Assembly: GCA_963817915.1 (NCBI GenBank)
Contig: CAWFQL010000009.1
Span: 308,271-372,270, forward strand
Reading direction: 5' to 3'
From: an uncultured candidate division Zixibacteria bacterium
Lineage (GTDB): Bacteria; Zixibacteria; MSB-5A5; UBA10806
DNA length: 64,000 nt
In this document: in pieces, positions 25,395-63,898 of the stretch
Layout of the letters: every line of letters begins with the position of its first letter
Numbering within the stretch: position 1 is the first letter of the stretch
The notes under the pieces: model-generated
Database searches by the model: none
What the model was told of the DNA's origin: nothing
What the model saw: the letters and a program-made list of their open reading frames with translations, nothing else
Position numbers and translations under genes: made by a program

Positions 25395-25511
25395 CTTCCC
25401 TTCTTAAAAATCAACACTCGATCCCTGCAACCACTACTACCACTTCCAAAAACTAATCATAATAATCCATTTTTTATAAATCAACTGATTTATGATAGCA
25501 ATATTTCTCGC

Positions 25512-25578
25512 GCCGTCAGGAATCCTTTCCTGACGGTTCACCGTCGTAAGGTGTCAGGAAGGGATTCCTGACACCGCT
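25512..25578. repeat. REPIN-like doublet, family C
   Basis: CCGTCAGGAA-TCCT-TTCCTGACGG...GGTGTCAGGAA-GGGA-TTCCTGACACC. Confidence 0.85.
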
Positions 25579-28979: not shown

Positions 28980-29006
28980 GACGAAAGATATGCCGCGATA
29001 TAATGC

Positions 29007-29119
29007 ACCGTCAGGAATCCTTTCCTGACGGGAACAAGCTGTAGGTCCGAACCCCTGTGGTTCGGACTCCTTCTTTTTATATATGGCAAATTGGCGGAAC
29101 CACAGGGGTTCCGCCCTAC
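29007..29119. repeat. REP cluster: family C single copy plus a GTAG-type doublet
   Basis: CCGTCAGGAATCCTTTCCTGACGG; GTAGGTCCGAACCCCTGTGGTTCGGAC ... GGCGGAACCACAGGGGTTCCGCCCTAC. Confidence 0.8.
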
Positions 29120-41567: not shown

Positions 41568-43380
41568 CAGCAAATTCCCATCATTCGATAATCTTGTTAA
41601 AGGATCGGCGACTTCGTTTAAACGTTTCCCGGTCACCTTGATATGCACTGTTCTGGTGACTTTGGCGTTAGTCATCATTATTAATGCCGATCAAAATGCT
41701 CATCCGAAGTGGCTCGAACGATTGGCGCTCACATGCGCGCTGGGAGTGCCGCTCTTTTTTGTGTTTATCACCAGACCTGAAATTCAGGAATGTGATAAAA
41801 CTGCCAGGATAATAGCACATAGTTTCGGGACCGCATTATTGGTCATATATTATTTTACGCTTCCGCAAAACCCCTCCGCGAACTTTTCGAATATAATAAG
41901 ATTCCTGCTCCTAATGATAGCTGTGCATTTCGCGGTCTCATTTTTGCCGTATATCGGCCCAAAAAAACTTGATGGTTTCTGGCAATACAATAAGACCCTG
42001 TTTCTGCGGTTTCTAAATTCGGCCCTGTTTTCGGCAGTGATGTATATCGGGTTGCTCCTGGCGCTCGTAGCGGCCAAGGAGTTGTTCGGATTCAAAATTC
42101 CCGATAAACGGTTTTTCCAGCTATTTATAATCATCGGAATACTTTTTAATACCTGGGTATTCCTTTCGGGTATTCCGCAGAATCTCAAAGGACTCGGCGA
42201 AACCTCTCAATATCCCAATGGACTTCGAATATTCGCGCAATATATCCTGCTGCCGCTTATAGGAATCTATTTTGTAATTCTATACGCTTACGAATTAAAA
42301 ATCATTATCAACTGGAATTGGCCCAAGGGATGGGTATCGCAGCTTGTACTCTGGTATTCGGTGGTCGGCATTCTGTCATTGCTATTGCTCTGGCCATTGA
42401 GAAATCTCACTGAAAATCGCTGGATCAAAACATTCACGACCTGGTTTTTCCGCGCGTTGATACCTTTGGTGGTGATGCTCTTTCTCGCCATCCTGGAACG
42501 AGTCGGGACCTATGGAATCACGATCAACCGTTATCTCGTACTTGCGATGGCGGTTGGGCTTTCGATTGTCGTCTTGTATTTTGTCTTTGGCAAAGCAAAG
42601 GACATCAGAGCCATTCCGATCGTAATATGCATCATAGCTATTTTGTCGGCGCTAGGACCCTGGAGCGCGTTCGCGGTTTCACGACATAGCCAGACCGGGC
42701 GGCTCGAAAAGTATCTTGTCAAAAACTCTCTCTTGACCAATGGCAAACTTATCCCCTCTCAAGCTGAAATCCCTCTCGAAGACCGCATGGAGATGAGCGA
42801 AATTATCTCATACCTCGTGGAATGGCACGGGGTAGAATCATTTGAACCATGGATAGCTGACAGCACTATGAAATCGATTGTAAGCACACCCAGGAAATAT
42901 GACATACCCGATTCAGTCGCGCATCATATGGGATTCCAATATGTTGCCGGACGGCATTACGTGCCGGGCGAAGGTGAATATTTTTCAATGGAAAAAAGCG
43001 ATACTCTGGGAGTCGATATTTCCGGGTATGATCAAATGTTTCATTACAGCCGTTTCGGGGACGAAAAATCTGATACTAAAAGTTTGTTCTATTTCGGCAA
43101 TGATACCATCAGCGTCTGGCAGGCGAGTTTAACCCCGGCTCTGAAAATTATGGTTGGACCTGACAGTGTTATCGGGGAAATCCCATTTTCCGATTCCATA
43201 AAGGCAATGCTGCCATCGCGTGATCGTGGCCATTTAGACAATGACCGCTGGAACTATGATGTGACTATCGGAAAATATGACGCCAGATTCGATATCCGAA
43301 GGCTAACCGCTCGCGTATTTCCCGATTCCATCAAAGTCAGCTATGTGAATGCTTATATGCTTTTGCGAGAGAAGAAGTGA
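41557..43380 (+). CDS. Multi-pass membrane protein, DUF4153-like
   Basis: FWQYNKTLF, YILLPL...Y..ILYAY, WPKGWVS, RVGTYGITINRY, GPWSAFAVS; candidate promoter TTGACT-17-TACGAT at ~41332. Confidence 0.8.
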   Translation: MNLFSKFPSFDNLVKGSATSFKRFPVTLICTVLVTLALVIIINADQNAHPKWLERLALTCALGVPLFFVFITRPEIQECDKTARIIAHSFGTALLVIYYFTLPQNPSANFSNIIRFLLLMIAVHFAVSFLPYIGPKKLDGFWQYNKTLFLRFLNSALFSAVMYIGLLLALVAAKELFGFKIPDKRFFQLFIIIGILFNTWVFLSGIPQNLKGLGETSQYPNGLRIFAQYILLPLIGIYFVILYAYELKIIINWNWPKGWVSQLVLWYSVVGILSLLLLWPLRNLTENRWIKTFTTWFFRALIPLVVMLFLAILERVGTYGITINRYLVLAMAVGLSIVVLYFVFGKAKDIRAIPIVICIIAILSALGPWSAFAVSRHSQTGRLEKYLVKNSLLTNGKLIPSQAEIPLEDRMEMSEIISYLVEWHGVESFEPWIADSTMKSIVSTPRKYDIPDSVAHHMGFQYVAGRHYVPGEGEYFSMEKSDTLGVDISGYDQMFHYSRFGDEKSDTKSLFYFGNDTISVWQASLTPALKIMVGPDSVIGEIPFSDSIKAMLPSRDRGHLDNDRWNYDVTIGKYDARFDIRRLTARVFPDSIKVSYVNAYMLLREKK

Positions 43381-43402
43381 AATTGCTCTTATAATTGTCG
43401 TT

Positions 43403-43509
43403 GTAGAGACATGCTATAGCATGTCTCTACGGTAATCCTCGCGCGCGGTTATGAATCTTTTCATGACCGTCCCCTGCGTAAGGTGTCAGGAAGGGAGCCT
43501 GATACCGCT
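43403..43509. repeat. GTAG-type palindrome plus family C doublet
   Basis: GTAGAGACATGCTATAGCATGTCTCTAC; GGTTATGAATCTTTTCATGACC...GGTGTCAGGAAGGGAGCCTGATACC. Confidence 0.85.
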
Positions 43510-43516
43510 GTAAATT

Positions 43517-44017
43517 TCAGAACTTCAATAATACGATTGTATGAAGAATCAGAGAAATGAAGAGCGGCAGGATATAGTAAGGAACCCGTATTTCAGCAAA
43601 CAGGAAAAAACCTGGGTTTATCATTTTGCTCTGATAATTATTTCTTCGTTGCTTTTGTGCATATTTGTAAAAGACATATACTGCTATTAGTTGAAACGGA
43701 TAACTAATCGATAACCAAATCAAGGCAGTCATAAACGAAATTCCTGGGGGTGCTCCTACTCTAACAATAATTGCAAACATAAGGATCGCACAAAAAACTG
43801 ATCCACCGCCAATAAGAACTTTGATTATTATTGGTGATATTGCTGCATACAAAGGCGTACAAAGCCTAAATACATAATTATGATTTTTCATCTGCTCCAA
43901 AAACCTTTTATACTTTTCTCTGTTTAGTCCAACAAAGGCAGTGGCAGCTATCCATGAACAAAGAAATGTCCACAAGACACCAATGAATGACCTCATATTT
44001 ATAGTTGTTTCTTCCAT
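43517..44017 (-). CDS. Hypothetical AT-rich membrane protein
   Basis: 166-aa ORF with several hydrophobic segments; no family recognised. Confidence 0.6.
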   Translation of the reverse strand: MEETTINMRSFIGVLWTFLCSWIAATAFVGLNREKYKRFLEQMKNHNYVFRLCTPLYAAISPIIIKVLIGGGSVFCAILMFAIIVRVGAPPGISFMTALIWLSISYPFQLIAVYVFYKYAQKQRRNNYQSKMINPGFFLFAEIRVPYYILPLFISLILHTIVLLKF

Positions 44018-44058
44018 AATTACCAGTCTAATTCAATTCGTCAAGTTAGTTATTGCCC

Positions 44059-44161
44059 CGTCATGAATCCTCACTTGACCGTCCCCAGCTTAAGGTTCAG
44101 GAATGGATTTCGGCTCGGGGGCAGGAATTATATGTTGTCGGGTTTTTCAAACCCGACCTAC
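44059..44161. repeat. Degenerate family C doublet plus GTAG-type REP
   Basis: GTCATGAATCCTCACTTGACCGTCCCC...TAAGGTTCAGGAATGGATT; GTCGGGTTTTTCAAACCCGACCTAC. Confidence 0.7.
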
Positions 44162-44183
44162 AGCTGGCCTTTCAGTGCCACTC

Positions 44184-45542
44184 CTACCCATCCCCTTGCT
44201 CGTGCGGGGCGCCGTGGAAGACGTCGAGCAATTCGAATTTGGCGTAGTCCTTCACGAATGACAGATTGACAATGCCGGTCGGGCCGTTACGCTGCTTGCC
44301 GATTATAATCTCGGCGAGAGTGCCCGGATGGCCGTCCTCATCTCTCGGGCGATGAATGAACAGCACCAGATCGGCGTCCTGCTCGATCGCGCCGGATTCG
44401 CGCAAATCCGAAAGCTGCGGCCGCGCGTCCTTGCCGCGCAATTCAACCTGTCGAGATAACTGTGATAATGCCACAACGGGGACTTTCAATTCTCTGGCCA
44501 GATGCCTTCAATGACTGCGATATATAGGTGATCTCCTGCTGGCGGCTTTCGGGACGTTTCTGCCCGGACACCAGCTGAAGATAATCGACAACGATCATTC
44601 CGATATTGTAACGAAGCTTCATTCGCCTTGCCTTGGCGCGAATCTCGATCACCGAAAGCGACGAGCTGTCATCGATATAAATCGGCGCCTCCGATAACGG
44701 CCCCACCGCTATCGATAAGATTCGTCCATTGGTGGTCGGCGATTCGTCCGGTGCGCATGTGATGCGATGATATCCGTGGCCCGGCTGCAGAGCAATCTCT
44801 GCGCCACCTGCTCCTTGGCCATTTCAAGTGAAAATAAGGCCACCGGCGTCCCCCGTGTAACAGCAATATTCTCCATGATATTCAGGGCGAACGCTGTCTT
44901 GCCCATCGAGGGTCGTCCCGCGATAATCACCAGATCCGATGGCTGAAATCCGGCGGTCAAGCTGTCCAAATCCGTATATCCTGTCGCGACTCCGGTGACA
45001 TGCCCTTCCCGTTTGGCGTATTCCTCGATCTGCTCAAATGTCTGCGGCAGTATGTTTTTCAAGGCGATAAAATCGCCCTTGAGCGTCTTATCTTTGATAG
45101 ATAATATTTTGCTTTCGGAATAATCCAGCAGGTCGTCGGCGACATTGGCCTGATCGTAGCATCGGCCGACTATATCACTGCAATCGGCAATCAATTGATT
45201 CTTGATCGAGGCCTCGAGCACCAGCCTGATATGATGTTCGAGATTGCCGTAGGTGACAACCGAATCGGCCAGGTCGAGCAGGTATCGCCGCCCGCCGATG
45301 TCCTCTAATTGCCCTCGTCTCTCAAGCTCCGATGGCATGGTCAGCATATCGACCGCGCCGGAAGAATCGTACAATGCTCTTATGGCCGCGAATATCTTGC
45401 GATGCTTCGGCACATAAAAGCTTTCATCATTTAATTGCTCGATACCCATATGCAGGGCATCTTCATGCTGCATCATCGCCCCAAGCACCGACTGCTCGGC
45501 TTCTATCGCCTGCGGCGGTATTCTATCTCTGCTGTCTGCCAT
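44184..45542 (-). CDS. dnaB: Replicative DNA helicase, split by three apparent +1 indels (~44775, ~44715, ~44500)
   Basis: [54 protein letters not shown] spread over four ORF pieces. Confidence 0.93.
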
Positions 45543-45548
45543 ATATTT

Positions 45549-46257
45549 TTACCCGTTGGAACGGATAATTTCCAATTCCCCTTTTAATTTTTTCAGATCC
45601 TCTATGGTTGATGGATACCAGCTCATGCTTCTTAGTAACGCCGCCGGATGGTATGTCACCATGAATTTGATGCCGCGATAATCGAACCATCGTCCGCGCA
45701 TGCCGCCCAATGTCGAATTGGTCTTCAGCAATGTCTGCCCGGCGATTCTGCCGAGACTGCAGATCACTTTCGGCTTGATCAATTTGATCTGCATATGCAG
45801 ATGCGGCTCGCATTCGGCAACCTCATCAGGCAATGGATCACGATTTTCCGGCGGACGGCATTTCAAAATATTGGCGATATAGACTTCATCGCGGTTGATA
45901 CCAACCTCGGCCAGCATTTTATCAAGCAGCTTCCCGGCTCTGCCCACGAATGGTATCCCCTGCAGGTCTTCATCACGTCCGGGAGCCTCGCCGATGAACA
46001 TGATGTCAGCATCGGGATTGCCGACACCGAATACGAATTTGGTGCGGGTCTTCCCTAACGGACATTTCTGGCAGATGCAGATTGTCTTATCAAGCTGGGC
46101 CAATGATTCCGATTCGGTGAATTTTTCTAATCGGCAACTGCTTGATTTTTTTCGCCGCTACTGGACGAGTCGATAATGGCAAATATATCTCCCTGTAACC
46201 TAATTCAATCTGTTGTTGAAAATATTTTATGAAGTCACTTTTTGACCCGTGGGCCAC
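45549..46257 (-). CDS. Family-4 uracil-DNA glycosylase; N-terminus apparently frameshifted near 46120-46150
   Basis: [34 protein letters not shown] in 45549-46103; upstream frame from GTG 46257 reads [17 protein letters not shown]. Confidence 0.85.
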
Positions 46258-47449
46258 GTTTAATCACCAGCTTCAACGATTCATCGATTATTTTAACAGC
46301 GACTTCGAATTTCGGCATTCTTTCGAGCTTCATGACCTTACTGTCGCGGGTTATCATGGTCACCTTATTGTATTCTGAGCCGAATTCGACACCCTCTTCG
46401 GTGGGGTTATTGGCAACTATCATATCCAATTTCTTAGCGCGCAATTTCTCTGTGGCCAGGGCTTCGAGATTCTCTGTCTCCAACGCGAACCCCACTACCA
46501 CTCTCGGACGATTCTCGCCGAGGCTCTTCAGCAGATCGGGATTGGGAATCAGATCGAGTTTGAGATTATCATTGGTTCGTTTGATCTTCTGCTTGTAGTA
46601 GCTTGATGGACGATAATCCGCCACCGCCGCCGCCATAAAGAGAAATTCGGTTTTGTAGCAGTATTTCTGTAACGCGCTCTGCATCTGCGATGCCGTCTGT
46701 ACCTTGATCAACTGGACGCCAGGCGGCGGTTCGAGATGAGTCGGTCCCGATATCAGGGTGACATCGGCGCCAAACCCGATCGCGGCATCGGCCAATGAAT
46801 ACCCCATCTTGCCGGATGAATGATTCGAGATATAGCGCACTGGATCCAATGGCTCCCGTGTCGGTCCCGCAGTCACAACAACTTTTTTACCCAGCAAATC
46901 ATTTCGTCCGACCAGCACCTGACGGGTCTTGTAATAAATATTGATCGGTTCGGTCATTCGTCCGGTGGCTGTTATCAATGTTGCCAGTTGTCCTGTTTCC
47001 GGCCCGATGAAATGAACGCCGCTCGATTCGAGGTACTGGATATTTTTGCGGACTGCCTTATTATTGTACATCTTGAAATTCATGGCTGGGGCAAGTAAGA
47101 TCGGCCCGGAGAACGCGATAGCCTGAGTCGATAAAACCTCATCGGCGATACCGCCCGCCATCTTGCCGATCATATTGGCGGTGCAGGGCGCAATAACGAG
47201 GATATTTCCCCAATCGGCCCAGGCCACATGCTCGATAGTATATTGATTCGGCTCGAAAATATCGGTGGTGACCGCCTCGGCGCCGAGCGACTGCATGGTG
47301 AGCGGCGAGACAAATTTCGATGCTGATTCCGTCATGACTACCCGCACCCGCGCGCCGGATTTGATATAGAGCCTGAGCAGTTCGCAGGTTTTGTACGCGC
47401 CGATACCGCCACTGACACCTAATAGAATATTTTTACCGTTCATTGCCAT
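46235..47449 (-). CDS. coaBC: Phosphopantothenoylcysteine decarboxylase / phosphopantothenate-cysteine ligase
   Basis: GVSGGIGAYK, PAMN, TAGPTREPLDPVRYISNHSSGKMG, AAVADY, GFALET. Confidence 0.95.
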   Translation of the reverse strand: MAMNGKNILLGVSGGIGAYKTCELLRLYIKSGARVRVVMTESASKFVSPLTMQSLGAEAVTTDIFEPNQYTIEHVAWADWGNILVIAPCTANMIGKMAGGIADEVLSTQAIAFSGPILLAPAMNFKMYNNKAVRKNIQYLESSGVHFIGPETGQLATLITATGRMTEPINIYYKTRQVLVGRNDLLGKKVVVTAGPTREPLDPVRYISNHSSGKMGYSLADAAIGFGADVTLISGPTHLEPPPGVQLIKVQTASQMQSALQKYCYKTEFLFMAAAVADYRPSSYYKQKIKRTNDNLKLDLIPNPDLLKSLGENRPRVVVGFALETENLEALATEKLRAKKLDMIVANNPTEEGVEFGSEYNKVTMITRDSKVMKLERMPKFEVAVKIIDESLKLVIKRGPRVKK

Positions 47450-47579
47450 ATTCGATTCATCGAGACATTTGGTTTTTGGTCTCCCTCCTGCTGTAAGAAA
47501 TAGAAATCGCACCCCCCTTGCAAGTTTAATCTCAAATTATTTCTCCACATTAGGATGTGGATAACTCCGCTTGTGTTCT

Positions 47580-47988
47580 GTCATTCCCGCGAAAGCGGGA
47601 ATCTTGCGAGTCTTTGCAGGATAGATTCCGCAATAAACCGACTTAGGCCCGCCGTGGCGGGTGCGGAATGATAGGTTTTTCTTTGTCATTCCTGCGAAAG
47701 CCCGTCAAGGGCCGGGCCACTGACTGGCAGAAATCTTGCGAGTCTTTGCAGGATAGATTCCGCAATAAATGCGGAATGACAGGTTCTTCTTTGTCATTCC
47801 TGCGAAAGCCCGTCAAGGGCCGGGCCACTGACTGGCAGAAATCTTGCGAGTCTTTGCAGGATAGATTCCGCAATAAATGCGGAATGACATGTTTTTTCCG
47901 CGCTGTCTTTGCAGGAAACCGGCGTCTGCCGGTCGACGAAACAATCTGTGGGTAGCCTAGAGCTCGAACCACAGGGATTCGGGCCTAC
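47580..47988. repeat. Tandem array of family A doublets (periods 105 and 108 nt) followed by family B and GTAG-type REPs
   Basis: GTCATTCC unit starts at 47580, 47685, 47793; units 2 and 3 are essentially identical. Confidence 0.9.
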
Positions 47989-48105
47989 TGCACTGTGACA
48001 CGCTATAAAACGTCGATTAATTCTTGACAAAATAGATACATATGGTTATGTATTAAATAAGGTGAATCTAAAATCATCTCAAAAATCCGAATCAGGAGGA
48101 TTTCG

Positions 48106-48705
48106 ATGAGGCGCAAATTTATTTCGATAATTATTTGTATATTATTGAGTACTGTTATTGGATTTGCTGCCGCGGCAGAATCCAAAGCACTATTTCCAGA
48201 TAATGGCAAACCAAGACCCGTCATTCTCAGGCAAGCAGACCCTTATATGATAGACCTGGATATGTCCCGGACTGATTACGCAAATTACAGATATTCATTG
48301 TCCACGGACATTAATCAGGATGCGTCATATTCATATGAAACCAGATCACCATTAGCCGCTTTCGTCGTAGGATTCGCGCCGGGCTTTATTATACATGGAC
48401 TTGGGCATGCCTATATAGGAGACCACAAGACAGCATCATGGCTATTGCTTTCTGAATGCGCGGCGGTCTTCCTTTCATTCGAATCCGCGAGGGAGGCGAT
48501 GGGTAAATATCATGGCGCAAGTAATAAGATGTCGAATTTCATGGGGTATGCGGGCCTGGTGATATTTGCCGGCGGATGGATTATAGATTTTATCCACGCC
48601 CCAATTCAGCTTGCGAACAAGCAGGCGATAATGGCTCAGCGCAGAGCGTTATTATTTGATATACAGAAAAGAAACGTGATTCTTAAATATTCGGTAGCTT
48701 TTTAG
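48106..48705 (+). CDS. Hypothetical exported/membrane protein
   Basis: AGGAGG RBS; signal peptide; SP..A....F.PG...HGLGHAYIG motif; C-terminal Phe. Confidence 0.7.
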   Translation: MRRKFISIIICILLSTVIGFAAAAESKALFPDNGKPRPVILRQADPYMIDLDMSRTDYANYRYSLSTDINQDASYSYETRSPLAAFVVGFAPGFIIHGLGHAYIGDHKTASWLLLSECAAVFLSFESAREAMGKYHGASNKMSNFMGYAGLVIFAGGWIIDFIHAPIQLANKQAIMAQRRALLFDIQKRNVILKYSVAF

Positions 48706-48716
48706 GATATCGTGCT

Positions 48717-49160
48717 GTCCGAGTTCCGTACCCGACGATATATCAGATGCTTCGCAGGGTTCAATATTGAACCCCTACATTGATTTCGTGCCCCGTAAAT
48801 AATCCATTTATGGCAATCAATCTTTTGTAGAGGCGAACCCATGTGTTCGCCCTCAAGCGCGGGCCGACACTGTAGGTCGGCCCCTACAAAGCATCTTCTC
48901 CTGTCATTCCCGCGAAAGCGGGAATCTTGCGAGCCTTAGCAGCGATAGATTCCGCAATAAATGCGGAATGACATGGTTTTGTCGCTCCGTCTTTGCGAGG
49001 AGACCGGCATCTGCCGGTCGACGAAGCAATCCGTGGGTAGCATCCTTCAGATTGCTTCATCCGCCTGCGGCGGATTCGCAATGACACTTTGGTGCGCGGT
49101 CATGAATCCTTTCATGACCGTCCCCCGCGTCGGTGTCAATAGGGGATTCCTGAAACCGCC
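48717..49160. repeat. Dense mixed REP cluster (D remnant, GTAG-type doublets, A doublet 48903-48972, B doublet 48989-49085, C doublet 49094-49160)
   Basis: At least nine hairpins matching families seen elsewhere, between convergent genes. Confidence 0.9.
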
Positions 49161-49171
49161 TTGTCGTCGAA

Positions 49172-49603
49172 TCAAATATTTATTTTATAATCTTGAACAT
49201 CATCCATTTCGTCGCCGACTTTCATAATTAAGATGATTAGGAAAATCAGCACCATGAAGGATCGTACATTCAAATATGATATAATTGGATTGGCGCTCCA
49301 AAAAAGGCGATGATTTGAATAGCTTAAATATAAAACTATACCCGTAGCCAAAATAAAAATAAGGTATTTCGCATAAGTTGGTAACGCGACGATAATTTTG
49401 CTGATATGCTTTAGTAAATACAAGATTAAAATCTCTATGGCCCAGAAGGGAGTTAATTTAACCCAAAAATTCAGGTTTAATATGCCGTCTCTAATTGAAG
49501 CTATAATACCGCTATTTACCAAAACGCCAAAATCAAACAAAAGCTGTAATAGGCCTAATAGAAGAAAGACTATTATGAGAATGTACTTCGTCTTTGTTTT
49601 CAT
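49172..49603 (-). CDS. Hypothetical AT-rich 4-TM membrane protein
   Basis: ATG 49603 with GAGGA RBS; four hydrophobic stretches. Confidence 0.6.
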   Translation of the reverse strand: MKTKTKYILIIVFLLLGLLQLLFDFGVLVNSGIIASIRDGILNLNFWVKLTPFWAIEILILYLLKHISKIIVALPTYAKYLIFILATGIVLYLSYSNHRLFWSANPIISYLNVRSFMVLIFLIILIMKVGDEMDDVQDYKINI

Positions 49604-49618
49604 TTTCCTCGTACTGAA

Positions 49619-49675
49619 ATGAATCCCTTCATGACAGTCCACCGCGTAAGGTGTCAGGAAGGGATTCCTGACGGC
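49619..49675. repeat. Family C doublet
   Basis: ATGAATCCCTTCATGAC...GTAAGGTGTCAGGAAGGGATTCCTGAC. Confidence 0.85.
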
Positions 49676-49689
49676 TACTTCGCTATTTG

Positions 49690-51240
49690 CTAATGCTTGA
49701 AATGCCTGACTCCGGTCAGCACCATAGCCACACCGGCTTGGTCTGCGGCTTTGATGACTTCGGGGTCTTGCTTACAGCCGCCCGGCTGAATCACCGCCAC
49801 CACACCGGCGTTGGCCAGCACTTCGAGCCCGTCAGGCATCGGGAAGAAGGCATCGGATGCCGCCACCGCGCCCTTGGCCTTGTCGCCGGCCTTGCGGACC
49901 GCGATCCCCGATGATTCCACGCGCGAGGTCTGCCCCGGCCCGACTCCGATAGTCGTGAAATCCTTGCAGATAACTATAGCGTTGGATTTGATATGCTTGA
50001 CCATCTTAAATGCGAACAGCAATTCGTCGATCTGGTGATCGCTCGGTTTTTTGATTGTCACGAATTGCAGGTCATCGCAAGTGATATCTTTGCGGTCTGG
50101 AGTCTGCGCAAGTAGCCCTCCGGCAATCGGGCGATAGTCGAATGATTCTGCAGGGGATGGTTTCAGATCGCCGATATCGAGCAGTCGTCGGTTCTTCTTG
50201 GTTTTGAGCAATGCCAGCGAATCAGGGTCGAATCCTGGCGCGAGGATACATTCCACGAACGCTGTCTCGTGCAATAGCTTAGCTGTCTCCATATCAATTA
50301 CTCGATTAAGCGCAATCACCGAGCCGTACGCCGATACCGGATCGGCCTCCAGCGCCTTTCTGTATGCCTCCGCCAATGTTTTCCCGATCGCCGCGCCGCA
50401 GGGATTGGTATGCTTGATCACCGCCGCGAACGGCTCTTTAAAATCCAATATCATCTGCAATCCGGCCTCGAGGTCCCAGATATTATTAAACGAGAGCTCC
50501 TTGCCGGAAAGCAGTCGGCCTTTGGCGATTGACGAATAACGATAATTCGGCGACTCATACAACGCTGCCTTCTGATGCGGATTCTCGCCATAACGAAGTG
50601 TCTCCCTGAGCCTGAATGATTGAGTGATAGGCGAACGGAAATCGTGATTGTCTTTATTGAAGTAACTATTTATGGCGCTATCATAAGCCGCTGTGCGGGC
50701 AAATGTTAACCCTGCCATTCGTCGGCGGAATTCAAGTGTCGTGTCGCCATTGTGGGATGACATCTCGGCCAGCAGTTCGGCGTAATCATCGGGGGATGTT
50801 ATCACGGTTACATGGGCGAAGTTCTTGGATGCTGAACGGATCATCGCCGGCCCGCCGATATCGATATTCTCGATAGCGTCCTCTTCGCTGACATCGGGAT
50901 TTTCGGTTACCTTCTCAAATGGATATAAATTGACCACGACCAGATCGATCGGCTCGATGCCATGCTTCTTCATCTGCGCCAAATGATCGGGCAGGTCACG
51001 ACGACCCAAAATTCCGCCATGCACTTTCGGATGAAGTGTCTTGACTCGGCCATCGAGTATCTCCGGGAATCCGGTGATATCGGAAACCGATTTGACCGCG
51101 ATCCCGGCATCCTGAAGGGTCTTCATCGTGCCGCCCGTGGAGATTATCTCGATACCATATTCGACAAGCTTTTTGCCGAACTCGACAATGCCCTGCTTAT
51201 CGTAAACTGTCAACAATGCCCTCTTAATACCCATCATCAA
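49690..51240 (-). CDS. purH: Bifunctional AICAR formyltransferase / IMP cyclohydrolase
   Basis: GRVKTLHP, IDIGGP, LRYGENPHQ, KHTNPCG, ASDAFFP. Confidence 0.98.
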   Translation of the reverse strand: MMMGIKRALLTVYDKQGIVEFGKKLVEYGIEIISTGGTMKTLQDAGIAVKSVSDITGFPEILDGRVKTLHPKVHGGILGRRDLPDHLAQMKKHGIEPIDLVVVNLYPFEKVTENPDVSEEDAIENIDIGGPAMIRSASKNFAHVTVITSPDDYAELLAEMSSHNGDTTLEFRRRMAGLTFARTAAYDSAINSYFNKDNHDFRSPITQSFRLRETLRYGENPHQKAALYESPNYRYSSIAKGRLLSGKELSFNNIWDLEAGLQMILDFKEPFAAVIKHTNPCGAAIGKTLAEAYRKALEADPVSAYGSVIALNRVIDMETAKLLHETAFVECILAPGFDPDSLALLKTKKNRRLLDIGDLKPSPAESFDYRPIAGGLLAQTPDRKDITCDDLQFVTIKKPSDHQIDELLFAFKMVKHIKSNAIVICKDFTTIGVGPGQTSRVESSGIAVRKAGDKAKGAVAASDAFFPMPDGLEVLANAGVVAVIQPGGCKQDPEVIKAADQAGVAMVLTGVRHFKH

Positions 51241-51244
51241 TCCT

Positions 51245-52162
51245 TTACACTATATCTGTACCAACTAAAATCTTGTGCGCTTGTTTGTATTTCTCCAATG
51301 TCTTAATGATCACATCATCGGGGATTTGCGGCGGCGGCGAGTTTTTATCCCAGCCACTGGTCTCCAGCCAATCGCGGATGAATTGCTTATCGTACGATGG
51401 CGGATTGGCGCCAGGCTTGTATAAATCCATTGGCCAGAAACGAGACGAATCGGGCGACAGGATTTCATCGATCAATGACAATTCGCCATTGATAAATCCG
51501 AATTCAAACTTGGTATCGGCGATAATAATCCCTCGAGTATTGGCGTAGGAATTGGCCATGGAGTAGATCGATAGCGTCGCCACCCGCAGCCGTTTGGCGA
51601 TATCCTCACCGATCATCGAAACCATCTTAGAGAATGATATATTCTCATCGTGGCCTTCCTCGGCCTTGATGGCAGGTGTGAAGATCGGTACTTCCAGTTT
51701 TTGCGCCAGCATGAGATTCGATGGGATCACATTATCATATAGACTAACTCTTTCGGCATCTGGCGATTCTATCACAAGTTTGCAATAGTCCTTCCAACCC
51801 GAACCGATCAAATAGCCGCGCGCGACACATTCGATATCGATCCGTTTGGCCTTCTTGACTATCATCGAACGGTCTTTTAGCTGGTCTTCGTATTTCAGCA
51901 GGTCCTTTGGATAATCATTAAAATCAACGATAGCTTTATGATTCGGTATAATCGCGCGGCTCAATTTAAACCAGAATAGCGACATCGAATTGAGAATCTT
52001 CCCCTTGCCGGGGACACCATTCGGCATCACCCAATCGAATGCCGAAATGCGGTCGGTGGCGATCATCAGAAGATGCTCACCGAGATCGTAAACATCGCGG
52101 ACTTTACCCCTGGCGACCAGCGGGTACTCCTTGATGTTGGTATTTAAAAGCGCCTTATTCAC
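51245..52162 (-). CDS. purC: SAICAR synthetase
   Basis: GKVRDVY, TDRISAFD, ADTKFEFG, PDSSRFW, DKQFIRDW. Confidence 0.97.
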   Translation of the reverse strand: MNKALLNTNIKEYPLVARGKVRDVYDLGEHLLMIATDRISAFDWVMPNGVPGKGKILNSMSLFWFKLSRAIIPNHKAIVDFNDYPKDLLKYEDQLKDRSMIVKKAKRIDIECVARGYLIGSGWKDYCKLVIESPDAERVSLYDNVIPSNLMLAQKLEVPIFTPAIKAEEGHDENISFSKMVSMIGEDIAKRLRVATLSIYSMANSYANTRGIIIADTKFEFGFINGELSLIDEILSPDSSRFWPMDLYKPGANPPSYDKQFIRDWLETSGWDKNSPPPQIPDDVIIKTLEKYKQAHKILVGTDIV

Positions 52163-52171
52163 AGGTCCTCC

Positions 52172-53617
52172 TTATTTCAACGCAAGATAATCGTAGCATT
52201 TGATGACATGAAATCTGGTAAGAGTTTTTCCACTTTTAATTATTAATAAATCGTCTATCTGTCCTATTTTTCCGAAATATTTCGAAAGCTTATCCCTGTC
52301 AGGTTTTGCGCGGTCATCATAAATAAAAACTGCATTATACCCCCTTAAAGTGTCCGGGTTACACCAATAATCGTATTCAAGCCCCGGCTCTCCAATGATA
52401 TTATTGCTGACGGTCTCGGGATTATCTTTCAAATAGAATGCCATCATCGAGGCGGTCTTGTATTCGTAGCCGCAGATAAAATACGGTCCCGGCATCTCCG
52501 CGCGGATTACTTCTACCTTTGCGGCCAATTCCTTCCATCCGCTGAAGTAGTCGCCCCGCCCAACATAAATATTAGGAGCAACCGCAATGATGTGTACCGC
52601 GATCAACGCCAAGGCGATGAATACCAAGCAGATATTGCCCCATACTCGCACCCATTTTTTCTCATCGCGATAATTGAAATAATAAGCTACAGCCGCGATA
52701 AACCATCCGATAAATGCCGGCGCTGTCCAGTTCATCTTGACCCATGATTTTGTCGCCAGTGGGAAAAGAAACAGGACCAGCGGAAGTGAGAATGAGATTA
52801 TCAGAATATATGCGGATGATTTTTCTATAAATGATTTCTTGATCGCCTCGATAATACCGGCGAATAATAGCGGTAACGGCAGAAATCCATAGATTGCCAA
52901 AACAGTGCCTACAAAGCCGAAGAAATAATCGGCACGGAATCTAATAAGTTCGCTGGCACGCCGTTCGGTCTGGAATAAGAAGCTGGCCCAGTGAGTAGAG
53001 TAATTCCAATATAAAACCGGCAACACGACTACAATTGAAACTGCCAAAGCTACATAAGGCCATAAAGTACGGAAATGCTGACGCCGTTCTTTCGATGAAA
53101 GTAGGAAAATGATCGTTCCCAGTCCGGCGAAGACCATTGGGTATTTGCTATCGAATCCCGCACCGAGGAAGATGCCCAATAAAATCCACCAGATATTCCC
53201 TTCATCTCTATCAATTTTGACGCAGGCAGTCATCGTAAGCACCCAAAATAGAAGCATTGGCGCATCGGGAGTTATTATCATCGCACCGAGAGCGTAGATG
53301 AATGTAAGATTAAGCACCACGACTGTCCAGAAAGCTACTATTTCATCGAATAGCATCTTGGTCAATTGATACAGCGCCAACGCCATCAGCACTGAGATTA
53401 TGATCGCCGCCAGATGAATAGCGAATCCCGACGAGCCAAACGATGTTGTCAGCCTGATAAAATAGGCGGCTATCGGCGGATGATCGAAATACGATAATGC
53501 CGGATGGCGCGAGTAATTCCAGTAATAAGCTTCTTGCGGAGCGATAGGGAGTATAATCGCGTATAAAAGCCTGAAGACGGTTATTCCAAAAAGGAATCTA
53601 TACAGCTTTTGATCCAT
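52172..53617 (-). CDS. ArnT/PMT-like GT-C glycosyltransferase
   Basis: EAYYWNYS, YFDHPP, TPDAP, SKY motifs; many TM helices. Confidence 0.88.
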   Translation of the reverse strand: MDQKLYRFLFGITVFRLLYAIILPIAPQEAYYWNYSRHPALSYFDHPPIAAYFIRLTTSFGSSGFAIHLAAIIISVLMALALYQLTKMLFDEIVAFWTVVVLNLTFIYALGAMIITPDAPMLLFWVLTMTACVKIDRDEGNIWWILLGIFLGAGFDSKYPMVFAGLGTIIFLLSSKERRQHFRTLWPYVALAVSIVVVLPVLYWNYSTHWASFLFQTERRASELIRFRADYFFGFVGTVLAIYGFLPLPLLFAGIIEAIKKSFIEKSSAYILIISFSLPLVLFLFPLATKSWVKMNWTAPAFIGWFIAAVAYYFNYRDEKKWVRVWGNICLVFIALALIAVHIIAVAPNIYVGRGDYFSGWKELAAKVEVIRAEMPGPYFICGYEYKTASMMAFYLKDNPETVSNNIIGEPGLEYDYWCNPDTLRGYNAVFIYDDRAKPDRDKLSKYFGKIGQIDDLLIIKSGKTLTRFHVIKCYDYLALK

Positions 53618-53620
53618 AGT

Positions 53621-55801
53621 TTATCTTCCGAACGCTTCCAAATCGAATACCAACGTACCCGATATTGCTATGAAGTAATGCTTTTCGGTGAGAGCTCTCG
53701 CTATATCGAAGCTGAGTATGCGCGCTGTTGCCGATTTGACCAGCCCAAGGCGAAGGCCGACTCCGACATCAGATTTCATTTGTGTCAAATCCACCTTCTG
53801 GCTGGCCCGCCAGACATTACCGCAATCGAAAAATGCCGCGCCGCCCAATCTAACTGTAAGCAGATCGAATGGCAGATAAATTCTATATTCGATATTCCCT
53901 AATGCTAACTTGGTACCTGAGTATTTGAAATACGGATAGCCTCGCAAACCGTTATCGCCACCTAATAGAACCTGATACGACGATGGCTGACGCCAGGCGA
54001 AATCAGTTAACGCGTGAATTGCCAATACTTGTCTTTCAGTGGTTTTCAAATAGATATAACCTTCGGAGATATTGCGTATCCGTTGGCTCTGGCCGCCTTG
54101 ACCGCGCCAGCTGACAGACGAAATACCGCCGACAATCAGATTGTTGAACGGCTTTACCAGGAATCTCGCCGAAACGCCGCTTATCCAGCTTTCGATATCC
54201 GCGCCGAGGCTCTTCAATGATTTTCCGAATGAGAATCCGATCGACGGCCCAAATGTCAGATCCTCAGGCGTGCCTGCCTCGTCTATATATCGTTCAACAC
54301 CATAACGAACACGCCCGACACCGATTCCAATCGATGGATACGACAATATTTCATCATGGGGAATGAGATGATTATTCAGGAGCGTATCCGAATAATAAGG
54401 GCTGTATTTATTGGCAAAATAATCGTAGGCCGCGGTCAGATTGAGCCGGTTTCTTTCGCCAAATGAATATGATGCCTGTGAATGAAAACCATCATTGACG
54501 GAATTATATCTAAAATATTCGATTCCACTATAAAACAACCTGTTTTGAGCGGTAGAATGACTATACACAGTCGCGAAAGTCGAATGGATTTTTAATGAGT
54601 ACTGGGGACGATCCAATTGAAAATAGTAATTTTTACCATAGGTAAAATTGGAATAATTGAATATGCCCTCGATACGGCTTCCTATCAAACGTCTATTCTG
54701 ATAATAAAATGACAGGCCTTTCTGATCTTTTCCAGTCTCGCCGGTCACTTCTACCAACTGCCCGGTACCCAGGAAATTCTTCTCGGCAAACAGTATACCA
54801 ATTTTATAATTGCCGCCGCCGGTCTGAATATTAGGCGCAAGCTCGGTCGTCCAGAGATCGATAGTTGTCACTTTGAGATCGACACTGTCGGCGCCGACTG
54901 GTGAGGCATTGATCACCACATCTTCAATGAATTGCGCCATACGGATATTCCGTTGGCTCTCAAGAACCCGTTCCTCATCGAGCGAATCCCCCTCGGCGAA
55001 GAGCAGCTCGCGCCGGACGATTCGCTCTTTGGTCTTCACATGGATAGCATCGGCCCATTTATAAACGAAAAACGAACCATCCTTCGACTGGTCTTCGAAG
55101 ACATTCTTGCGGACAATCTCGATTTTGCGGATGATCCTGCCATGATATTGCCTGAGATCGGTATCGTTGGCGAATACTATGGATGATATCAGGATCGTGA
55201 TTGCGAGAAGCTTAATGACAAGACCTGTCATTCCAGCGAAAGCTGGAATCTTGCCCGTTCCTTTTGGGTGGCAGTCATCTTTGATTGCCCCTTCGTATCG
55301 CACCCTTTGTGTCGGGTCAGGCGACCCGACACCACAGGCAATACCTGCCGTCTGGTTTTTCAATCCCGACCTACTACTGGTAAGACTTGTCATTCCCGCG
55401 AAGGCCCGTTGCGCGCCAGGCCCCTGACTGGCGGGAATCCAGTTTTCTTTTTTTGTCATTCCCGCGAAGGCGGGAATCTTGCCGGTTCCTTTTGGGCGGC
55501 AGTCATCTTTGATTGCCCCTTCGTATCCCACCCTTTGTGTCGGGTCAGGCGACCCGACACCACAGGCAATACCTGCCGTCAGGTTTTTCAATCCCGACCT
55601 ACTACTGGTAAGACTTGTCATTTCCGCGAAGGCGGGAATCTTGCAAGTTCCTTTTGGGCGGCAATCATCCTTAGCTGCCCCATCGTATCGCACCCTTAGT
55701 GTCGGGTCAGGCGACCCGACACTGCAGGAATCACATGATTTATTGTAGGGGCGGGTTTCAAACCCGCCCCTACGGAAGCATACTGCCAGATTAAACATCA
55801 T
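53621..55801 (-). CDS. Omp85 (BamA/TamA-like) outer-membrane protein; first 190 codons are mostly REP-derived (alternative start 55231)
   Basis: POTRA-like TKERIVRRELLF..GD; E.NFLGTGQ; LGGDNGLRGY; NIEYR; FFDCGNVW; DVGVGLR. Signal peptide IKLLAITILISSIVFA follows the repeats. Confidence 0.85.
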   Translation of the reverse strand: MMFNLAVCFRRGGFETRPYNKSCDSCSVGSPDPTLRVRYDGAAKDDCRPKGTCKIPAFAEMTSLTSSRSGLKNLTAGIACGVGSPDPTQRVGYEGAIKDDCRPKGTGKIPAFAGMTKKENWIPASQGPGAQRAFAGMTSLTSSRSGLKNQTAGIACGVGSPDPTQRVRYEGAIKDDCHPKGTGKIPAFAGMTGLVIKLLAITILISSIVFANDTDLRQYHGRIIRKIEIVRKNVFEDQSKDGSFFVYKWADAIHVKTKERIVRRELLFAEGDSLDEERVLESQRNIRMAQFIEDVVINASPVGADSVDLKVTTIDLWTTELAPNIQTGGGNYKIGILFAEKNFLGTGQLVEVTGETGKDQKGLSFYYQNRRLIGSRIEGIFNYSNFTYGKNYYFQLDRPQYSLKIHSTFATVYSHSTAQNRLFYSGIEYFRYNSVNDGFHSQASYSFGERNRLNLTAAYDYFANKYSPYYSDTLLNNHLIPHDEILSYPSIGIGVGRVRYGVERYIDEAGTPEDLTFGPSIGFSFGKSLKSLGADIESWISGVSARFLVKPFNNLIVGGISSVSWRGQGGQSQRIRNISEGYIYLKTTERQVLAIHALTDFAWRQPSSYQVLLGGDNGLRGYPYFKYSGTKLALGNIEYRIYLPFDLLTVRLGGAAFFDCGNVWRASQKVDLTQMKSDVGVGLRLGLVKSATARILSFDIARALTEKHYFIAISGTLVFDLEAFGR
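55227..55773. repeat. Composite REP array (units 162, 66, 162 nt, partial unit, GTAG-type REP)
   Basis: GTCATT unit starts at 55227, 55389, 55455, 55617. Each 162-nt unit strings families A, G, D' and GTAG-type. Ends with GTAGGGGCGGGTTTCAAACCCGCCCCTAC at 55745-55773. Confidence 0.92.
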
Positions 55802-56382
55802 TGCTCGAACATCCTCACCGCCTGAGGCAATATAATATGCTCGACCTGCAAGACCCTATCCGCCAGCGATTCCGCCGTATCGCCGGGCAACACAGGGATT
55901 GTCCGTTGAATTAGAATTGCCCCGTGGTCATATTCTTCATCCACAAAATGCACGGTCGCGCCGGAGATTCTATCACCAGATTCGATGACCGCCTTGTGGA
56001 CATTGAGGCCGTACATTCCCGCACCGCCATATTTGGGCAGCAATGCCGGGTGGATATTGATGATCCTGTTTTTGTATTTGCGGACTAATTCTATCGGCAA
56101 AAGCTTCATATACCCGGCTAATACGATTAGGTTTATTTTGTGGAATTCCAATATCGTTAACAGCTTTTCTATATACTTGCTTTCATCGGCAAATTGTCTG
56201 GCGCTGATATGAAATGATTCAATATTGTTTTGAATCGCCCGCTGGAGAACAAATGCCCCGGAGTTGTTCGAAATGACGCAGTTAATACGGCCTTTTAAAT
56301 GGCCCTTATTTATCTCATCAATTATAGCTTGCATATTGCTGCCATTTCCCGACGCTAATACTGCTATTGATAGCTCTGACAT
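55798..56382 (-). CDS. purN: Phosphoribosylglycinamide formyltransferase
   Basis: ASGNGSN, LAGYM, NIHPALLP, GATVHFVDEEYDHG. Confidence 0.96.
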   Translation of the reverse strand: MSELSIAVLASGNGSNMQAIIDEINKGHLKGRINCVISNNSGAFVLQRAIQNNIESFHISARQFADESKYIEKLLTILEFHKINLIVLAGYMKLLPIELVRKYKNRIINIHPALLPKYGGAGMYGLNVHKAVIESGDRISGATVHFVDEEYDHGAILIQRTIPVLPGDTAESLADRVLQVEHIILPQAVRMFEQ

Positions 56383-56463
56383 AGTACCTCGCATTTCATG
56401 GGGCATGAATATATTTTAAATTTGCGGAATTATCAATTTAAATAAGGGGGGGCAATCTACAGA

Positions 56464-56615
56464 GGTATCAGGAATCCATTCCTGACATCTTGCGCAGGAA
56501 CGGTCATGAAGGGATTCACGACCGCGCACAAAATAGCGGAGAAACTGAAGCAGGAGTTCGAAATTTTAACCCCTACATTGCATCTGATCTTTTGTCAGGT
56601 CAGGCGACCCGATGA
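56464..56615. repeat. Family C doublet (reverse orientation) plus degenerate REPs
   Basis: TCAGGAATCCATTCCTGAC...GGTCATGAAGGGATTCACGACCGCGCAC. Confidence 0.85.
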
Positions 56616-56628
56616 CGCTCGCACTCTA

Positions 56629-58263
56629 CTATTTCAGCAATACTATTTTTAACGTATTCGAATTACGACCTGAGTCGAGTCTGGCAAAATAAACGCCGGA
56701 CGATAAATTGCCGGCATCCCAAACAACGCTATGCTCGCCCGCCTGCTGAATACCATCGAATAGAACCGCCGCCCTCTCCCCCATAATATTATAAATTGTT
56801 AGAGACACTGCCCCTGGCTCGCTGATATTATAATAGAATCGGGTTTGGGAATTGAATGGGTTTGGGAAGCTCGAAAGCAATTGATGATTTTCGGGCGGAT
56901 TAACTTCATCGCTTATGCCCGTCCTCTGAAGGCCATAGATAAGAAGCGTGGCGCCTTCAATCGCGAAAAGCTCGTCGTCACCATCGTTATTATAGTCGCT
57001 TATAGCTGTAATCCAGGCCTCGGATGAAGTCACACTGGCAGTCTGCTGGCCATTGGAACCGTCAATAAACCGCACCTCGCCATAAGGCCCAACCTGACAG
57101 GCTATTTGCGGACGGGTAAAGAGGGATGATTCATACTTGGAAATAATAGTATTTAGCCTATCAATGTGTCGCTGCCAGACTTGGCTGCCGCCACCTATAC
57201 CGCACAGTGAGAGATAATCATTCAAGCAATAGCAGATTTCCATGCCGGGGCGAGTGGGCTTGAAATCATCCATAATGGGGCCCTTTAAATCCGAATCGTC
57301 GAACTGCTGAACCTCCCATAACGTCCCTATTTGCCTGCCGGTATCGGCAGCAATAACAAACGAGTAATCGCTCCTATAGGGTATCGCCCATGGATAATCG
57401 ATCCCGCGTGATGATCCAATCGCGTAAATAAATGTGCTGTCATTTAAGATAATCGAATCTCGAAAATAAATCTTTCCGCCGCCTAACGTATATCTCAAAC
57501 CTAAATCTCCGCCTCTATACGCGTATACGACGCCATCGTTGATTCTGGTCCCAACACCACCGACATGCTGATAGTCTTCTCTGGCAACAGATAAAAATAT
57601 AGATATATCATCAGGATCGTTTGAAAACTTATTCAAGAATACCTCATAAGGTTCTTGATAATACTCAGTTATCCATTCCGAAAACGGATTCTGATAATAA
57701 TAGTTAGCCAGCCTTTTGATATATGTAACGGGGGGATCGAATGAGGCTCCATTATATGTTTCAATCCAGACAGTGTCGGAATTATCATAATTGCCATATC
57801 TCGTGAATGGCTCTTTGCTGACAACAACGATATCGCCCCAGCCATCGCCATTCCTGTCACCGATAGTGTAGCATTTATAGTTGGCGTCGACCGACGGGCT
57901 CGTCCAGATTAGGTTGTCGATATGCGGATTGAATATATAAATATTCTGGCCGGCGAAACATGAAATATCAAGCTTTGAATCATTATCCATATCGGCGAAT
58001 AGCAGGTTTTGCGGGTAATTTAAAACAGGACTGGTCCATACTGGATAATTGCCGGATGCATTATAGAAGAAAATATGATTTTCTGAACATAGCACGATAT
58101 CCTTCAGACTGTCACCATCGAAATCTTCAATGTATATTCTATTGAAGCCTTCAGATACTGGTATACTGGATATCTCGGCAAGTACCAGCGTATCTACCTG
58201 CGCTAATACCGGAGACGCAAATACGGACGCGGATAGTATCACCAACTTCAATATCTTTCCCAT
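56629..58263 (-). CDS. Secreted FG-GAP/VCBS-repeat protein with C-terminal T9SS-CTD/FlgD-like domain
   Basis: DFDGDSLKDI, DMDNDSKLDI, DRNGDGWGDI, DYNNDGDDEL; FPNPFNS...KIVLLK; GGAGG RBS. Confidence 0.85.
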   Translation of the reverse strand: MGKILKLVILSASVFASPVLAQVDTLVLAEISSIPVSEGFNRIYIEDFDGDSLKDIVLCSENHIFFYNASGNYPVWTSPVLNYPQNLLFADMDNDSKLDISCFAGQNIYIFNPHIDNLIWTSPSVDANYKCYTIGDRNGDGWGDIVVVSKEPFTRYGNYDNSDTVWIETYNGASFDPPVTYIKRLANYYYQNPFSEWITEYYQEPYEVFLNKFSNDPDDISIFLSVAREDYQHVGGVGTRINDGVVYAYRGGDLGLRYTLGGGKIYFRDSIILNDSTFIYAIGSSRGIDYPWAIPYRSDYSFVIAADTGRQIGTLWEVQQFDDSDLKGPIMDDFKPTRPGMEICYCLNDYLSLCGIGGGSQVWQRHIDRLNTIISKYESSLFTRPQIACQVGPYGEVRFIDGSNGQQTASVTSSEAWITAISDYNNDGDDELFAIEGATLLIYGLQRTGISDEVNPPENHQLLSSFPNPFNSQTRFYYNISEPGAVSLTIYNIMGERAAVLFDGIQQAGEHSVVWDAGNLSSGVYFARLDSGRNSNTLKIVLLK

Positions 58264-58369
58264 AAATCCTCCAGAATCGGTTAAGCCGGATTTATCAAGC
58301 ATTAGTTGTATGATCAAATTAATGATACAGGATTATTTTGTCAACAATTAATATCTGGCATCTTCGTTC

Positions 58370-58508
58370 GGGGTCAGGAATCACTTCCTGACACCTTACG
58401 TTAAGAACGGCCATGAAAGGATTCATGACCGCGCACATTTGATTTCTATAAATGGATTTTAACAAAGCCCGGAATTCATGTAGGGATTCAATATATAAAT
58501 CCCTACAT
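58370..58508. repeat. Family C doublet (reverse orientation) plus GTAG-type palindrome
   Basis: GTCAGGAATCACTTCCTGACACCTTACG...GGCCATGAAAGGATTCATGACCGCGCAC; GTAGGGATT...AATCCCTAC. Confidence 0.85.
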
Positions 58509-63722: not shown

Positions 63723-63898
63723 AGTGGTGGCAGGTCTCCGCACCTGCCACAAAACCCGTCTTATCGTCGGGTACGGAGACCCGACGACACAAGCATTGCC
63801 CGCTGTAGGTCATTTCCCCTGGGAAATGACGGCGTGCTTCTTGTCAGGTCGCAGGCGACCCAATTAGCCTGTCATTCCCGCGAAAGCGGGAATCTTGC
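63723..63898. repeat. REP cluster (D doublet, GTAG-type, D' remnant, family A at 63871-63894)
   Basis: Same sequences as at 22858 and 34058; GTCATTCCCGCGAAAGCGGGAATC. Confidence 0.85.

Follow-up and report, generated by a model that had tools for sequence, protein, structure and literature searches.

Six copies of a ~65-nt double-hairpin element form three direct pairs, each around one gene, between positions 43443 and 58436 of the stretch analyzed here, a 64,000-nt window at the right end of contig C9 (CAWFQL010000009.1) from an uncultured Zixibacteria bacterium (assembly GCA_963817915.1, hereafter G000; 3.33 Mb in 22 contigs, GC content of 44 to 46%). By its sequence and predicted fold, the element is a newly described, low-copy member of the repetitive extragenic palindromic (REP) kind, arranged as a REP doublet forming hairpins (REPIN). 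On balance, we judge that REP families in G000 spread over short range with their orientation kept, thereby yielding direct pairs around single genes throughout the genome. An earlier sequence-only reading had located the six copies and their three direct pairs, which sequence and pattern matches confirm, and had interpreted them as a cassette system for gene capture or exchange. The latter proposal did not hold, since direct bracketing occurs genome-wide, includes resident syntenic genes, and involves no cargo that recurs elsewhere.

Each element is composed of hairpin 1 (GCGCGGTCATGAA-TCCY-TTCATGACCG), a spacer of ~14 nt, and hairpin 2 (GGTGTCAGGAA-GGGA-TTCCTGACACC). Hairpin 2 is the same kind of unit as hairpin 1, inverted, and the element is thus a head-to-head REP dimer with the layout of a REPIN. 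The complementarity between the TCCY and GGGA loops, to which the sequence-only reading had drawn attention, is real but a trivial consequence of this inversion. Searches with the hairpin 1 pattern identified 4 loci on both strands (8 matches versus 0.02 expected from shuffles), and the hairpin 2 pattern returned 4 matches (0.00 expected). All window copies but one (six of seven) form two hairpins when folded as single-stranded DNA (z scores of −3.4 to −7.5), which, together with an alignment of 17 copies, supports the REPIN architecture suspected earlier. The GTAG tetranucleotide present at the hairpin foot in other G000 families is absent from the consensus GCGC(C/G)GTCAKGAA..., and comparison of the element with Rfam revealed no matching family. 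Copy a (43443..43509, plus strand; z, −3.35) consists of a TCATGAA-type hairpin 1, the spacer, and the inverted hairpin 2, and lies 7 nt from the stop codon of the first bracketed gene. Its partner, copy b (44055..44120, plus strand), between the start of the same gene and the dnaB stop, is decayed (64 to 68% identity to the other copies; z, +0.34) and lacks stable hairpins. Copy c (49094..49160, plus strand), in which hairpin 2 is partly decayed, is 11 nt from the stop of the second gene, and copy d (49611..49677, plus strand; nhmmer start at 49613) occupies the spacer between purH and this gene, with its 5′ GCGCGG end replaced. The third pair, on the minus strand, comprises copy e (56464..56529), between the purN start and the 3′ end of the third gene, and copy f (58370..58436), in the divergent spacer upstream of it. 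Besides these, the window contains a solo copy of the ancestral type, with GTCAGGAA in both hairpins (25510..25575, plus strand; z, −7.45), and a half copy limited to hairpin 1 (29005..29031, plus strand).

Bracketing by this family is far more frequent than chance placement allows. We distributed 15 copies at random, weighted by length, over the 1,361 spacers of at least 70 nt, and none of 20,000 trials produced three or more adjacent-spacer pairs (18,379 gave none, 1,564 gave one, and 57 gave two). The number observed was three with a crude gene map and five by eye, because two copies fell inside spurious open reading frames (ORFs) of that map. Full dimers bracket single genes at five places, and four of these brackets are direct, i.e., the three window pairs and C12:261813/262574 (contigs of G000 are designated C).

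Direct bracketing by copies of one family is common to many REP families in G000. For every gene of at least 100 amino acids (aa), we matched the 300 nt on its left against the 300 nt on its right and scored shared repeats as direct or inverted. Any shared flank repeat was direct at 55 genes and inverted at 2, whereas matches of REP size (28 to 130 nt) were direct at 44 and inverted at 3, with a total of 3.2 predicted by random flank pairing. When at least four genome copies were demanded, 26 direct and 0 inverted pairs remained. Chance bracketing due to repeat density was therefore rejected, as the expectations from both random placement and flank pairing were exceeded. The direct-to-inverted ratio fell off as the pairs took in more genes (16:1, 10:4, 5:2, 4:2, and 3:6), and the direct excess was gone between repeats at least 30 genes apart on the same contig (181:194) and between contigs (3,080:3,173). 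These distant comparisons control for method bias and for a replichore-wide strand rule; a replichore-wide strand bias was rejected as the cause on the basis of the same-contig count. Coupling of orientation to transcription was likewise discarded. Far pairs were direct in 837 cases and inverted in 664 when transcribed in the same direction, versus 630 and 884, respectively, for opposite directions, and so weak a bias (56:44) cannot yield 94% direct pairs; such pairs also turn up in spacers of the convergent and the divergent type. The best non-self match of a copy was its pair partner in 12 of the 26 cases, compared with ~4 in a hand estimate from family sizes. The copying mode of REPs and REPINs is still unsettled, and 26 direct pairs out of 26, with an excess that fades over a few genes, point to local, strand-keeping copying and thus place a constraint on the mechanism.

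The genes enclosed by such pairs include those for citrate synthase, superoxide dismutase, TonB, DsrE-like, DUF420, rubrerythrin-like, secreted type IX, and GIY-YIG proteins, and three genes for REP-associated tyrosine transposases (RAYTs). The rubrerythrin-like gene on C12 is bracketed by the window's own family. Its upstream neighbor is kept in six of seven loci from relatives (the seventh being too short on the upstream side), and the upstream gap, which holds the dimer in G000, is 200 nt long there and 0 to 40 nt long in relatives. Both upstream neighbors of the DUF420 gene are similarly kept in 5/5 relatives. The neighbors of citrate synthase vary among relatives, and its synteny is uninformative. 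Resident genes in conserved synteny are thus bracketed, indicating that the repeats came to these genes, and a direct pair is no evidence that a gene arrived with its repeats. Vertical conservation without repeats and bracketing at no more than chance frequency had both been named in the sequence-only reading as outcomes that would speak against cassettes. We found the first, as bracketed syntenic genes are conserved without repeats in relatives, but not the second. For genome reading in general, these results recommend caution: direct hairpin repeats around an orphan gene resemble a cassette, but resident core genes are enclosed in just this way too.

To survey the family, an nhmmer profile built from the window copies was run over the 3.33-Mb genome. 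It retrieved 17 full dimers, all in spacers, and a looser pattern (at most 2 mismatches) detected 73 single hairpins. Nine dimers belong to a TCATGAA subtype, in which GTCATGAA/TTCATGAC replaces the ancestral GTCAGGAA/TTCCTGAC of hairpin 1 on both sides of one base pair, i.e., a compensatory change from a G-C to a T-A stem pair. Six of the nine make up the three window pairs, and the other three (C9:23464, C10:54306, and C16:280308) are solitary, near the consensus, and 92 to 97% identical to one another. The identity matrix of the 17 copies is star-like around these three, to which the window copies are 64 to 91% identical, each with private changes. The dimer design occurs in 15 of the 24 genomes of the order, G000 counted, with 1 to 9 matches per genome. 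A metagenome scan for the TCATGAA hairpin gave 0 matches. Stem positions covary across the order (G-C to T-A and A-T to G-C), and relatives carry the paired variants GTAAGGAA, GGCAGGAA, and GTCGGGAA. The dimer family is therefore old, and its stems have been maintained by compensatory change.

Stem conservation of this sort is also what a selected function would leave behind. The double hairpins could act as RNA or DNA signals (transcript-end stabilizers, insulators, or protein-binding sites) that isolate foreign genes from the transcripts of purH and dnaB, which are essential. Consistently, copies a, c, and d lie 7 to 12 nt from the 3′ ends of ORFs, and copy d is necessarily transcribed if the second gene is expressed from purH. 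Other features fit such a role poorly, since the element runs opposite to the bracketed gene in the first two pairs and in the same direction in the third and the C12 pair, no T-run follows the hairpins at the window pairs, copy b has been allowed to decay, and Rfam offers no counterpart. Function alone would furthermore leave the direct-pair excess across many unrelated REP families unexplained, and we regard this explanation as very unlikely.

We lean toward the explanation that REPIN-like elements spread over short distances into free spacers and keep their orientation as they do so. An old, low-copy REPIN-like family would have given rise to a lineage-specific subfamily through the compensatory stem change described above. 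New copies would mostly land no more than a few kilobases from a copy already present, would share its orientation, and would survive only in intergenic spacers; the usual outcome would therefore be a direct pair around one gene. The placement of copies a, c, and d, 7 to 12 nt from ORF 3′ ends, also matches what has been published for REPs (PMC3733652). In the tight purN-dnaB block, insertion of four accessory genes would have created seven of the nine usable spacers, six of which the family would then have filled. On this reading, the genes would not have been delivered by the repeats, nor would the repeats be recombination sites of a cassette system. As to the copying itself, we propose single-strand excision of the HUH/Y1 type, after which the element would reinsert close to its donor on the same template strand.

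The window genes are, judged by synteny, accessory insertions into a block that is conserved in relatives, as the sequence-only reading had anticipated. The nearest relatives are of family level (PurH identity of at most 72% in the 24-genome order set and at most 76% among metagenome loci). With no closer relative in the collections searched, no empty site carrying a single element was found. In these, purN-omp85-PMT-purC-purH-coaBC-UDG-dnaB is contiguous, where PMT stands for a glycosyltransferase and UDG for a uracil-DNA glycosylase, and the gap between purH and coaBC is ~100 nt. In G000 the same gap spans 2.1 kb and contains, from the coaBC side, REP arrays of other families, a 199-aa gene, further REPs, element c, a 143-aa gene, and element d. 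A palindromic motif (TCTCCACA..TGTGGATAA, 47541..47566) adjoins coaBC in G000 and directly follows the purH stop in relatives. This shift from the purH to the coaBC side places the whole insert between 47570 and 49689. At the site in family-level relatives, there is neither a gene insert nor an element, although their distance limits the weight of this absence. Throughout the 43- to 59-kb stretch, seven of the nine spacers of at least 70 nt adjoin an inserted gene, and six of these seven hold the element.

Bracketed gene 1 (43517..44017, minus strand), directly after dnaB, encodes a 166-aa hydrophobic orphan with a GC content of 0.353 and lies 7 and 37 nt from its two elements. Gene 2 (49172..49603, minus strand) encodes a 143-aa hydrophobic orphan (GC, 0.322). 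It is 11 nt and ~9 nt from its elements, which leaves space for the ribosome-binding site that it possesses and, as had been claimed before, none for a promoter; gene 2 is probably read through from purH. Gene 3 (56629..58263, minus strand) encodes a 544-aa FG-GAP protein with a type IX secretion C-terminal domain, sits ~100 nt from each element, and has the composition (0.443) of the contig (0.445). It is one of a very large paralogous set and is located where synteny breaks upstream of purN. Genes 1 and 2 have no paralogue in G000, match only themselves among 5.8 billion protein clusters, and yielded no fold lead (Atlas scores below 0.9). Their description as accessory, AT-rich orphans was thus correct, and their fit to the repeats was close to that first reported, with gaps of 7 to 37 nt. 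The 199-aa gene, second in the purH-coaBC insert (48106..48705, plus strand), has direct copies of another REP family on its two sides (47595-47912 and 48918-48996).

Several findings weigh against short-range copying. The fifth single-gene bracket by full dimers is inverted (C9:21264+/23464−). Partners in the window pairs are only 64 to 78% identical and rank 9, 4, and 3 among the copies, so they are not mutually closest and the window pairs give no direct sign of mother-daughter copying. The two orphan genes fill nearly all the space between their elements, which a cassette origin would explain neatly. GC contents below 0.39 characterize 7 of the 26 REP-bracketed genes, in comparison with 120 of 2,795 genes genome-wide and 36 of the 649 that have two spacers of at least 70 nt; three of the seven are RAYT genes, and the REP-bracketed AT-rich genes are probably foreign. 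A search of five relatives failed to find four further bracketed genes or recovered them only in part, a count that comes without a base rate. One relative (G010) contains a 69-nt, 98.6% identical direct pair, confined to the dimer, around an AT-rich PKD-domain ORF. None of the 11 Y1/RAYT loci inspected in G000 qualifies as a cognate RAYT flanked by intact copies of the window family, the kind of gene that the sequence-only reading had proposed to look for, and no enzyme that would copy this family was found. For strain SBW25, Bertels and Rainey 2011 (PMC3116915) report no deviation from random for distances between neighbors above 200 bp. The portions consulted of that paper and of PMC3733652 contain no account of REPINs copying at short range on the same strand, and those of a 2022 preprint (10.1101/2021.07.10.451892) make no mention of local or same-orientation copying. 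A full-text literature search on REP elements flanking in direct orientation found no paper. The composition bias, the genes not recovered from relatives, the tight fit of the orphans, and the G010 pair may reflect a gene-moving role, but the new spacers that come with foreign genes are unconstrained and would draw in repeats anyway.

One such role would be Campbell-type integration, in which a resident copy recombines, either homologously or by means of a site-specific recombinase, with a circle that bears a gene and a single element. The gene would thereby come to lie between direct repeats, which is the integron-like outcome proposed in the sequence-only reading. This is the sole model that predicts exclusively direct pairs (26:0), it would account for orphan ORFs that occupy nearly all the space between elements, and the pairs around three genes that five relatives yielded not at all or only in part are young (95 to 98% identity). 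It does not explain pairs around resident syntenic genes, the alignment of 17 copies contains no private variants shared between window partners, and the purH-coaBC site of family-level relatives lacks an element. The best TIGR02249 match in G000 scored 81.1 bits against a cutoff of 265, in agreement with the initial statement that no integron integrase is present, and no IS110-type enzyme was found in this genome. Two Xer-like genes in G000 do have window-family hairpins upstream, but the hairpin is present at none of 24 Xer loci from relatives and no Xer homologue lies near relatives' dimers; the Xer link was hence rejected as a coincidence. We consider this kind of integration rather improbable. 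An Xer-like gene at C9:23617-24510 shows a frame shift near its C terminus.

Alternatively, the direct copies could serve as ends of the IS200/IS605 type for a REP-bounded passenger transposon, with a Y1 transposase acting in trans to move element, gene, and element as a single-stranded circle. The ends of IS200/IS605 elements lie in direct orientation, as do the hairpins at both ends of all three window pairs and the C12 pair. REP elements are accompanied by RAYT transposases (Bertels and Rainey 2011; reportedly also Nunvar 2010), and G000 contains at least 9 Y1-transposase matches (more by protein search), with most of its Y1/RAYT genes adjoining their own GTAG-type REP family. Around the four RAYT genes with readable flanks, the REP copies are direct in three cases and inverted in one, although REP copies flanking RAYT genes are usually described as inverted. 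That the window genes are insertions and orphans, that AT-rich genes are overrepresented among those bracketed, and that the G010 pair is nearly identical would all fit. Set against this, no second copy at an independent site exists for any of the 26 REP-bracketed units, and resident syntenic genes are bracketed too. The sole full-length match to a bracketed unit is a strain-variant contig of the same locus. A search of public reads for excision junctions at 43300-50000 listed no run. Contigs C20, C14, C13, and part of C1 are 94 to 98% identical versions of parts of C16/C21, C12, and C3, so the assembly holds strain-variant duplicates; these were rejected as instances of presence/absence polymorphism because the alignments have small gaps only and no REP-sized indels. 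With regard to enzymes, a single decayed window-family dimer lies ~150 nt upstream of the RAYT gene at C16:227854, whose own REP is of another family, and 0 of 29 RAYT loci in relatives carry a window-family hairpin. The family-level purH-coaBC site, empty of genes, is empty of elements as well, though the relatives are too distant for this to weigh much. We deem such transposition unlikely, and quite unlikely the specific proposition that Y1 (RAYT-like) transposases use direct REP hairpins as ends and carried the orphans beside dnaB and purH as cargo in single-stranded circles. If REP pairs did bound passenger transposons, they would represent a new route for moving single genes. Any gene between two direct same-family REPs would then be a nonautonomous IS200/IS605-like passenger transposon, amounting to a dispersed, integrase-free form of gene capture.

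Some further features deserve mention. In the RAYT genes C16:227854-228393 and C16:373616-374152, the cognate REP hairpin occurs twice, upstream and ~270 nt inside the ORF, in frame. On C12, a direct repeat of 51 nt (98% identity) lies on either side of a 347-aa AT-rich gene (220230-221270; GC, 0.371). The repeat resembles the 3′ end of a tRNA gene, and the locus may thus be the remnant of an integrative element. The 199-aa gene of the purH-coaBC insert has three tandem paralogues (46 to 49% identity) on contig C6 (15150-16751). The palindrome at 47541-47566 has TTATCCACA-like halves, which resemble DnaA boxes, and is conserved in relatives within the spacer from purH to coaBC, upstream of coaBC-UDG-dnaB (L013:16617-16716, L015:17147-17244, and L019:14232-14336). 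The dnaB gene (44184-45542, minus strand) keeps a single reading frame apart from ~90 codons in its middle, which are out of frame (ORFs 44709-45542, 44443-44706, and 44184-44489), i.e., it contains two compensating frameshifts that represent either assembly indels or a broken essential gene. The annotated N terminus (55226-55795) of the Omp85-family ORF at 53621-55801 consists of three tandem units of 162 to 228 nt, each a mosaic of three REP families, and the true start of this ORF is probably downstream of the annotated one.

Among known systems, Xer-dependent pdif-like sites consist of two recombinase-binding arms around a 6- to 8-bp center and are linked to Xer recombinases, whereas the arms of the window element are separated by 4 nt. 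Integron cassettes are similar in that a single promoterless ORF is held tightly between structured repeats, with gene 2 probably expressed by read-through. They differ in that here IntI is missing, the pairs are scattered across 15 kb and further contigs instead of forming a single array on one platform, gene-to-repeat orientation is inconsistent, and the repeats also flank resident core genes. The intergenic mosaics and minimal mobile elements of Neisseria, which are bounded by dRS3 repeats, share with the window the small-repeat mosaics around strain-variable genes between conserved genes; exchange in that genus depends on transformation and on homologous sequence in the conserved genes at either side. 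Like our pairs, IS200/IS605 elements place similar, directly oriented hairpins at the two ends of a segment, and their Y1 HUH family is represented in the genome. Their left end differs from their right end, however, whereas both ends here are complete symmetric dimers, and neither a transposase between the ends nor any sign of movement was found.

Closer parallels are provided by the CGTC-tagged REPs. Di Nocera et al. 2013 (PMC3733652), in the sections considered here, describe head-to-head REP dimers, REPs close to the 3′ ends of ORFs, and CGTC-type REPs without a dedicated transposase, the individual CGTC-tagged REP having an unpaired CGTC-like tag, an 8- to 9-bp stem that starts with A-T pairs, a 4- to 5-nt loop, and a short tail. 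The window family agrees with that account in its head-to-head dimers, short conserved spacers, 4-nt loops, proximity to ORF 3′ ends, and want of a dedicated transposase, and CGTC stands at the 5′ edge of its ancestral unit (GCGCCGTCAGGAA...). It departs from it in that this CGTC is paired within the stem, leaving no unpaired tag, and in that the stem start lacks the A-T pairs of the published form. Another repeat of the window, TGTCATTCCCGCGAAAGCGGGAATC (47577-47611, 48900-48934, 55224-55648, 63868-63902, and 28205-28239), fits the description of CGTC-1 REPs, as far as the same sections give it, much better. The CGTC-1 class includes the dRS3 repeat of Neisseria (PMC3733652, section 6), and this CGTC-1-like repeat occurs in a genome that is apparently of a phylum very distant from Neisseria.

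Compared with the REPIN/RAYT system, as presented in the part of PMC3116915 considered, the window family is very small (17 dimers), has no GTAG tag, and is accompanied by no RAYT with intact flanking copies; moreover, REPs in G000 show strong gene-spanning pairing in the same orientation, versus the random arrangement beyond 200 bp in SBW25. The likeness is nonetheless extensive. As in that system, inverted REP units are joined by a short conserved spacer, the copies are extragenic and dispersed, and the population is of the master-copy type. The family is kept within its lineage across the order, and the genome carries several Y1/RAYT genes beside REP families of their own.

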